Source of the DNA: a virus
Lineage: Duplodnaviria; Heunggongvirae; Uroviricota; Caudoviricetes
Strand: one strand, 5' to 3'
DNA: 8,894 nt
Virus record (IMG/VR): IMGVR_UViG_2700989172_000005
A program made the position numbers and the translations under genes. Each line of letters begins with the position of its first letter. Position 1 is the stretch's first letter. Under the pieces are notes generated by a model, which was not told where the DNA came from, ran no database searches, and saw only the letters and a list, made by a program, of their open reading frames with translations. Below, one piece after another: positions 1 to 370 of the stretch.

Positions 1-46
1 TCATCAGATGGCTGCTTAAAAAAAGAACAAATGGTAGTGTCCGCTA

Positions 47-370
47 TTGCCAGTACACCTCAAACTACTCATTGCCAGATGGGAACTGACCGCAGAACAG
101 GCTGTCGCACAGCAGTTAAAAAATCAGGTGTCAAAAGGAAATCTTATCGATACCGGATTTTGTATTTTTGCCCTTAGTAAGCTGGCGATGGCTTTATCCA
201 GTACGCTTGACTCCATTCCTTTGTCCATGCAACGACAGTTCCCGGATTTAACGCCGCGTCATATTGATCATCTGAAAATCCTTATTGCTAAGGGAGCGAA
301 TCAGTGCGCGCGTGCGGGGGATAAATTACCGGATTTACTCGATGAATATATCAGAACAACAACTGAGTAA
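47..370 (+). CDS. nu1: Terminase small subunit (lambda Nu1-like), C-terminal portion only; possibly truncated or frameshifted upstream
   Basis: The translation (...LTAEQAVAQQLKN...GFCIFALSKLAMALSSTLDSIPLSMQRQFPDLTPRHIDHLK...LPDLLDEYI...) aligns with the C-terminal ~95 aa of lambda Nu1 as I recall it. Its stop at 368-370 sits inside the start region of the downstream gpA gene, as in lambda. An in-frame TAG at 35-37 prevents upstream extension in this frame, so the N-terminal DNA-binding domain is not encoded contiguously here. Position 47 is a TTG; GTG at 38 is an alternative start. Confidence 0.6.
   Translation: MPVHLKLLIARWELTAEQAVAQQLKNQVSKGNLIDTGFCIFALSKLAMALSSTLDSIPLSMQRQFPDLTPRHIDHLKILIAKGANQCARAGDKLPDLLDEYIRTTTE

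Follow-up and report, generated by a model that had tools for sequence, protein, structure and literature searches.

The right end of IS600 adjoins a truncated lambda Nu1-type small terminase gene in a Shigella flexneri prophage

The small terminase subunit of phage lambda (TerS, gpNu1) carries a winged-HTH domain, comprising residues 1-68, that binds cosB (PMC4856287). IS600 belongs to the five insertion sequences that have expanded in every Shigella species and contribute to functional gene loss there (PMC7373316). The window analyzed here, a stretch of 8,894 nucleotides of viral DNA (IMG/VR record IMGVR_UViG_2700989172_000005), brings the two together. Its first 370 positions almost certainly represent the junction of an IS600 right end and a remnant of nu1 in a decaying S. 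flexneri prophage, from which the upstream DNA is gone and which would no longer package itself. The features discussed below are collected in Table 1.

Table 1. Features of the window, with positions counted from its first base, and content of the corresponding interval in an intact relative.
Feature	Position	Strand	Details
IS600 (IS3 family) right (3′) end	1..62	+	transposase end, TAA, terminal inverted repeat
chimeric IS600-nu1 ORF, 107 codons	47..370	+	from the ORF list; translation = P0075
nu1/terS 3′ remnant, lambda Nu1-type	62..370	+	codons 68-169 of 169 and stop 368-370
terL, gpA-type large terminase	342..2252	+	Pfam GpA_ATPase and GpA_nuclease; overlaps nu1 3′ end
portal gene, split	2453..4046	+	ORFs 2453-3508 (351 aa) and 3423-4046 (207 aa)
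RMDEC364 interval			3′ end of Rz; ParD/ParE toxin-antitoxin pair; KilA-N gene; two hypothetical genes; cos region; first 201 nt of nu1

Positions 1-62 are the right end of IS600. In frame 2, positions 2-16 encode the last five transposase codons (HQMAA), followed by the TAA stop at 17-19, and the IS600 transposase ends in the same way (...EKYHQMAA and stop). The imperfect terminal inverted repeat of the element closes with ...ACCTCA at position 62; the last base (A) is common to the IS600 end and nu1, which makes the boundary ambiguous by 1 base. A query with positions 1-70 has 5,393 matches across 2,770 E. coli genomes, with up to 43 per genome and some on plasmids, and the matches fall under features labelled 'IS3-like element IS600 family transposase'. 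Positions 1-64 give short multi-copy matches, unlike the prophage sequence further on, and positions 1-62 are 97-100% identical to thousands of IS600 copies.

We used the 1264-bp copy of E. coli CFSAN004176 (L002:599-1862) as a reference, which RefSeq labels 'IS3-like element IS600 family transposase, programmed frameshift'. Its transposase coding sequence ends at the equivalent of window position 19, and the right end ...CAGTACACCTCA (window 62) is the inverse of the left end TGAGGTAGCCTG.... In the chromosome record CP012735.1, a complete 1264-bp IS600 ends at window 62 (L008:7753-9016) and is 99.5% identical to RefSeq-annotated IS600. It possesses the TGAGGT...ACCTCA termini and the length of about 1264 bp typical of IS600, and the C-terminus of orfB, belonging to a transposase with programmed frameshift, adjoins the right inverted repeat. 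The TAG at 35-37 and the A7 run at 18-24, which overlaps and directly follows the transposase TAA stop, are therefore IS600 sequence and lie outside the terminase. In E. coli CFSAN004176, the right end is followed by AACTACT (L002:1863-1869), as at window positions 63-69, but inside a KilA-N gene. This common flank probably stems from selection when the 5,393 hits were ranked, but it could also reflect a target preference.

From position 62 onward the window contains a small-terminase pseudogene. Frame 2 stays open from position 38 as far as the TAA at 368-370, with the translation ...KLLIARWELTAEQAVAQQLKN...DEYIRTTTE; it is closed upstream by the TAG, and the other frames have stops at 87-89 (frame 3) and 175-180 (frame 1). 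The native terminase part comprises 102 codons (62-367), approximately the 3′ 60% of the gene. Its product matches the Pfam family Phage_Nu1 (PF07471) with 68.9 bits against a cut-off of 30, aligning with profile positions 86-163 of 164 only, covers positions 88-189 of 199 in the PHROG family phrog_57, and is 45% identical to residues 86-180 of lambda Nu1. The remnant is the counterpart of the part of Nu1 responsible for self-assembly and large-subunit binding. As in other Nu1-type genes, it adjoins and overlaps a gpA-type terL, nu1 ending at 370 and terL starting at 342.

An initial annotation of this DNA had already described a Nu1-like C-terminal part as the only segment readable in one frame, and its length estimate of about 95 aa comes close to the native part found here. 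The TAG, the stops of the other frames within 180 nt and the A7 run to which it drew attention are all present. They are fixed features of the DNA rather than a statistical signal, and several independent assemblies repeat the sequence base for base. The IS end, however, went unrecognized there, and three options were offered for the missing front half: a truncated gene, a frameshift at the A7 run, or a short subunit with an upstream partner. Only the first of them stands.

The position of the truncation is defined by intact relatives. In a megablast search of window positions 1-1200 against 5,426 complete E. coli genomes, with results ranked by coverage multiplied by identity, no E. coli match among the best ones listed starts before position 62, and in the phage collection likewise no match reaches upstream of it. 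The nu1 gene of E. coli FDAARGOS_943 (L001:3800-4309) encodes a protein of 169 aa (WP_074132335.1), annotated as 'terminase small subunit'; the window matches this gene with zero mismatches from position 62 on and is unrelated to it before. For the second intact relative, E. coli RMDEC364 (L005; WP_000235445.1), residues 68-169 align at 99% in tblastn. Nucleotide identity from position 62 onward is 99.9% to FDAARGOS_943 and 98.8% to RMDEC364. The breakpoint falls between codons 67 and 68 of nu1: the intact gene before codon 68 (...GATTATGAAGAG) bears no likeness to window positions 1-61, and the IS600/nu1 junction reads TATTGCCAGTACACCTCAAACTACTCATTGCC.

The link between the 67 lost residues and the DNA-binding domain of lambda rests on the phrog_57 profile. 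Lambda Nu1 maps to its positions 11-188, with the N-terminal DNA-binding domain at 11-75, and the intact 169-aa relative maps to 12-189, with its first 67 aa at 12-86 (E = 1.4e-11). Since the two N-terminal segments occupy the same part of the profile, the lost part is the counterpart of the winged-HTH cosB-binding domain, and this domain is missing from the window gene, in which native sequence begins only with codon 68. When the N-terminal 70 aa of the intact relative were scanned against Pfam, only a sub-threshold Sigma70_r3 match resulted, and a PDB sequence search with the whole 169-aa protein gave a best E of 0.5, to the unrelated BUD31. The N-terminal 67 aa of the intact relatives are too diverged for Pfam and PDB sequence search, and only the PHROG profile matches them.

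Searches for the lost part at the affected loci were negative. In tblastn, the intact N-terminal 67 aa found nothing better than E = 1.2, i.e., chance level, in eight related loci, with E = 2e-44 for the positive control RMDEC364. No N-terminal coding sequence of nu1 occurs in the window or, in six loci with the exact ORF, up to 9 kb upstream, where the initial annotation had proposed to look for a winged-HTH domain. A protein search with the same 67 aa returned only 18 fragmentary entries, either named E. coli or carrying no name and none of them named Shigella, in a search that missed known full-length proteins.

An exact search with the 39-nt junction retrieved S. flexneri SFBU1023 and ECMA0423, the latter recorded under the name E. 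coli. Outside a run of N, the window is 100% identical to CP012735.1 and CP024983.1 (L008 and L010), chromosome records carrying the ORF, to which the sources give the name Shigella flexneri. Six loci with 9 kb of flanking sequence were taken for upstream comparison. The window itself starts inside the IS, so the left IS junction and the deletion were read from these other assemblies, which are identical to the window where they overlap it. The locus encodes, in order, a DnaB-like protein, NinH, antiterminator Q, holin, lysozyme and a truncated Rz, followed by IS600, the chimeric nu1, terL and W, and then by the split portal gene, S49 protease, D, E, FI, FII, Z and U. The left end of IS600 adjoins ...CCGGGACGGG within Rz and the right end adjoins AACTACTC..., and upstream of the remnant in L007-L012 there is IS600 and then the truncated Rz, with no cos site.

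A simple IS600 insertion is flanked by a 3-bp target-site duplication. At this locus the 3 nt to the left of the element are GGG and those to the right are AAC, with no duplication, which fits either an adjacent deletion mediated by the IS or recombination between two IS600 copies. In the SFBU1023/ECMA0423 lineage, another IS3-family element, about 1.29 kb long (L004:1934-3225, the same in L012; also L003), interrupts IS600 in turn; we take it to be IS629/IS1203-like. This element has the ends TGAACCGCCCCGGG.../...CCCGGGGCGGTTCA and is flanked by a CAA duplication.

In RMDEC364, the distance from the end of the lysis cassette to codon 68 of nu1 is 2542 bp, in the same orientation and collinear with the head genes. 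The missing segment includes a cos-like sequence (L005:4122-4147), 92% identical to lambda positions 20-45. This segment adjoining cosN is the only part recognizably conserved in the intact relative; the lambda cosN 12-mer, allowing at most 1 mismatch, is absent from the relatives and from the window. Identity to RMDEC364 is 94.6% on the lysis side and 98.8% on the head side, so the size and content of the loss in the true ancestor can be given only approximately. The ParD/ParE pair and the KilA-N gene of RMDEC364 lie between the lysis cassette and cos (L005:2194-2728). FDAARGOS_943 carries other cargo in the same slot (DUF4406 and hypothetical genes), making it a variable moron slot, deleted in the Shigella prophage.

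Adjacent deletion by IS600 or inter-IS600 recombination is the likely cause of the loss. The most serious competitor is a rearrangement, in which two IS600 copies recombined and joined the lysis side from one locus with the head side from another, and the 5′ end of nu1 and cos survive elsewhere beside another IS600. Shigella chromosomes are heavily rearranged via insertion sequences, and both the IS600 without target-site duplication and the unequal identity of the two sides to RMDEC364 agree with such an event. We nevertheless regard it as improbable: the lysis cassette and head genes follow each other in the same direction as in intact RMDEC364, for which a simple deletion suffices, and no Shigella-named entry emerged with the N-terminal 67 aa, although that search was visibly incomplete. 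Deletion, as opposed to rearrangement, thus appears to be the better reading of the locus, and the order of events given below is likewise a reconstruction.

Lesions are also present downstream. In terL, positions 2179-2183 read AGTTG where both intact E. coli prophages have TGGCGG, a net change of -1. Residues 1-612 are consequently encoded in frame 3 and residues 615-642 in frame 2, and the last 30 residues of the protein are replaced by 24 unrelated ones. The lost tail is conserved with lambda gpA (...LDLAVLAASRKD... vs ...LDLSALLASLQEE...), whose C-terminal residues form the prohead-binding tail. In the portal gene, T5 has become T6 at 3441-3446 (+T relative to FDAARGOS_943), placing residues 1-331 in frame 2 and 325-530 in frame 3. 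Both lesions are common to all related loci, so an error confined to one assembly does not account for them. The view of the initial annotation that a broken small subunit and a frameshifted portal point to a decaying prophage is correct, because terL is frameshifted as well.

SFBU1023 and ECMA0423 contain extra 1-nt indels that split terL at the window equivalents of 940 and 1067; these could be either homopolymer errors or signs of continuing decay. For the S49 (gpC-like) protease gene, a duplication or frameshift was considered and rejected: a tandem-repeat search was empty, and alignment revealed a masked run of 128 N at 5427-5554, corresponding to 57 nt in identical genomes, which alters the apparent frame and length of ORF 4036-5589. 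This is a masking or gap artefact and no lesion. The FI-like and FII-like genes (7101-7909) encode proteins with 54% and 65% identity to those of RMDEC364, compared with 92-100% for the flanking head and tail genes, a divergence suggesting mosaic module exchange.

The chimeric ORF owes its TTG start and four further codons to the IS600 inverted repeat, which is in frame with the nu1 remnant. The TTG lies inside the inverted repeat by chance, hence the ORF reported by the gene caller. Its 107-aa translation is listed for 343 contigs as 'putative DNA packaging protein of prophage; terminase small subunit [Shigella flexneri]', and a 100-aa contig-end version for at least 1000 contigs. The chimera is therefore already annotated in public S. 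flexneri genomes and belongs to known biology.

If this ORF were expressed, by read-through from IS600 or within the late operon, its product could act as a decoy, deficient in DNA binding, that poisons the terminase when other lambdoid phages superinfect the cell. By sequestering the large terminase of these phages, the fragment could serve as an accidental superinfection-exclusion factor kept in S. flexneri. The ORF is intact and identical across many S. flexneri genomes in which terL and portal are broken, it retains the counterpart of the Nu1 region for assembly and gpA binding, and phage-inducible chromosomal islands (PICIs) possess TerS-binding proteins that redirect or block packaging (PMC6739421). 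However, recent common descent explains the identity across strains, a promoter and terminator scan of window positions 1-500 found nothing, and no ribosome-binding site for the TTG start is evident in the sequence. We consider both the expression of such a decoy and its retention as an exclusion factor very improbable.

Still less can be said for the two discarded options of the initial annotation. The first, a +1/-1 frameshift, real or due to a sequencing error, near the A7 run, would place the N-terminal domain in another frame just upstream. Homopolymers are common frameshift sites, and frame 3 of positions 3-30 (IRWLLKKR...) loosely resembles VIKWYAERD of lambda Nu1. Against this, the run belongs to IS600 and overlaps the transposase stop within a segment whose identity to other IS600 copies is given above; positions 1-61 yield IS600 sequence whichever of the three frames is translated, with no likeness to intact residues 1-67, just as the nucleotides preceding codon 68 in the intact gene are unrelated to those of the window. 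The probability left for a frameshift is negligible.

The second option, a naturally short small subunit of about 100 aa acting with a separate upstream DNA-binding protein, is extremely unlikely. Two PHROG families seem to speak for it, phrog_1790 (114 positions) consisting of the C-terminal part only and phrog_7289 (91 positions) of the N-terminal part only, and some database homologues are 80-134 aa long. Most of the short entries, however, are labelled 'partial', and the complete homologues in Escherichia, Salmonella, Klebsiella and Citrobacter have 167-172 aa. Moreover, the near-identical E. coli prophages possess one uninterrupted 169-aa gene, and the upstream neighbor here is an IS transposase and not a DNA-binding partner.

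The two PHROG families correspond to residues 56-169 (phrog_1790) and 2-90 (phrog_7289) of the same 169-aa terminase (L001:3800-4309). This suggests that phage records contain enough fragmentary or split annotations of the gene for these to make up families of their own.

Mis-assembly at insertion sequences is frequent, and IS600 here marks the exact end of many draft contigs, but a contig mis-joined at a repeat has next to no probability as the origin of the junction, which recurs in eight or more independent assemblies; some of these reach chromosome length (records of 4.4-4.7 Mb), and they include CP012735.1, CP024983.1, CP007037.1, CP182556.1 and CP178302.1.

Returning to the IS600-associated loss, we propose the following course of events. 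IS600 would have entered nu1 at codon 67/68, and about 2.5 kb, judged by the closest intact relative, would have been lost from Rz to codon 68, taking with it cos, accessory genes and the 5′ 201 nt of nu1. A pseudogene remnant would have been left behind, with the TTG of the IS inverted repeat giving rise to the called ORF. Because it lacks cos and the cos-binding domain and has an altered terL tail and a frameshifted portal, the prophage would presumably be unable to package its own DNA. It is a decaying prophage, fixed in a Shigella flexneri lineage.

Window positions 1-370 should accordingly be labelled as the right end of IS600 followed by the pseudogene remnant of a small terminase, and not as a frameshifted or unusually short terminase. 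The phenomenon as such is already known; the locus adds one further example of IS-driven prophage decay in Shigella and carries little weight beyond annotation. For annotation practice, an unexplained truncation at the edge of a window should first be compared with the ends of insertion sequences.

Compared with described systems, the locus differs from a plain IS600 insertion in its flanks, which show no target-site duplication; in its length of 1264 bp, its TGAGGT/ACCTCA termini, its right-end sequence and the C-terminus of its transposase, the element agrees with IS600. The outcome proposed for a decoy fragment would be comparable to that of the TerS-targeting proteins of PICIs. The intact E. 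coli genes of 169 aa in FDAARGOS_943 and RMDEC364 precede the same downstream head genes as in the window, but they are uninterrupted and located 3′ of a cos-like region, whereas the window copy is devoid of codons 1-67 and fused to IS600. The likeness to lambda extends from the 45% identity over Nu1 residues 86-180 and the location upstream of, and overlapping, a gpA-type terL to the downstream order of W, portal, S49 protease, D and E. Unlike lambda, whose Nu1 has the N-terminal winged-HTH cosB-binding domain and whose genome has cos, the window prophage possesses neither.
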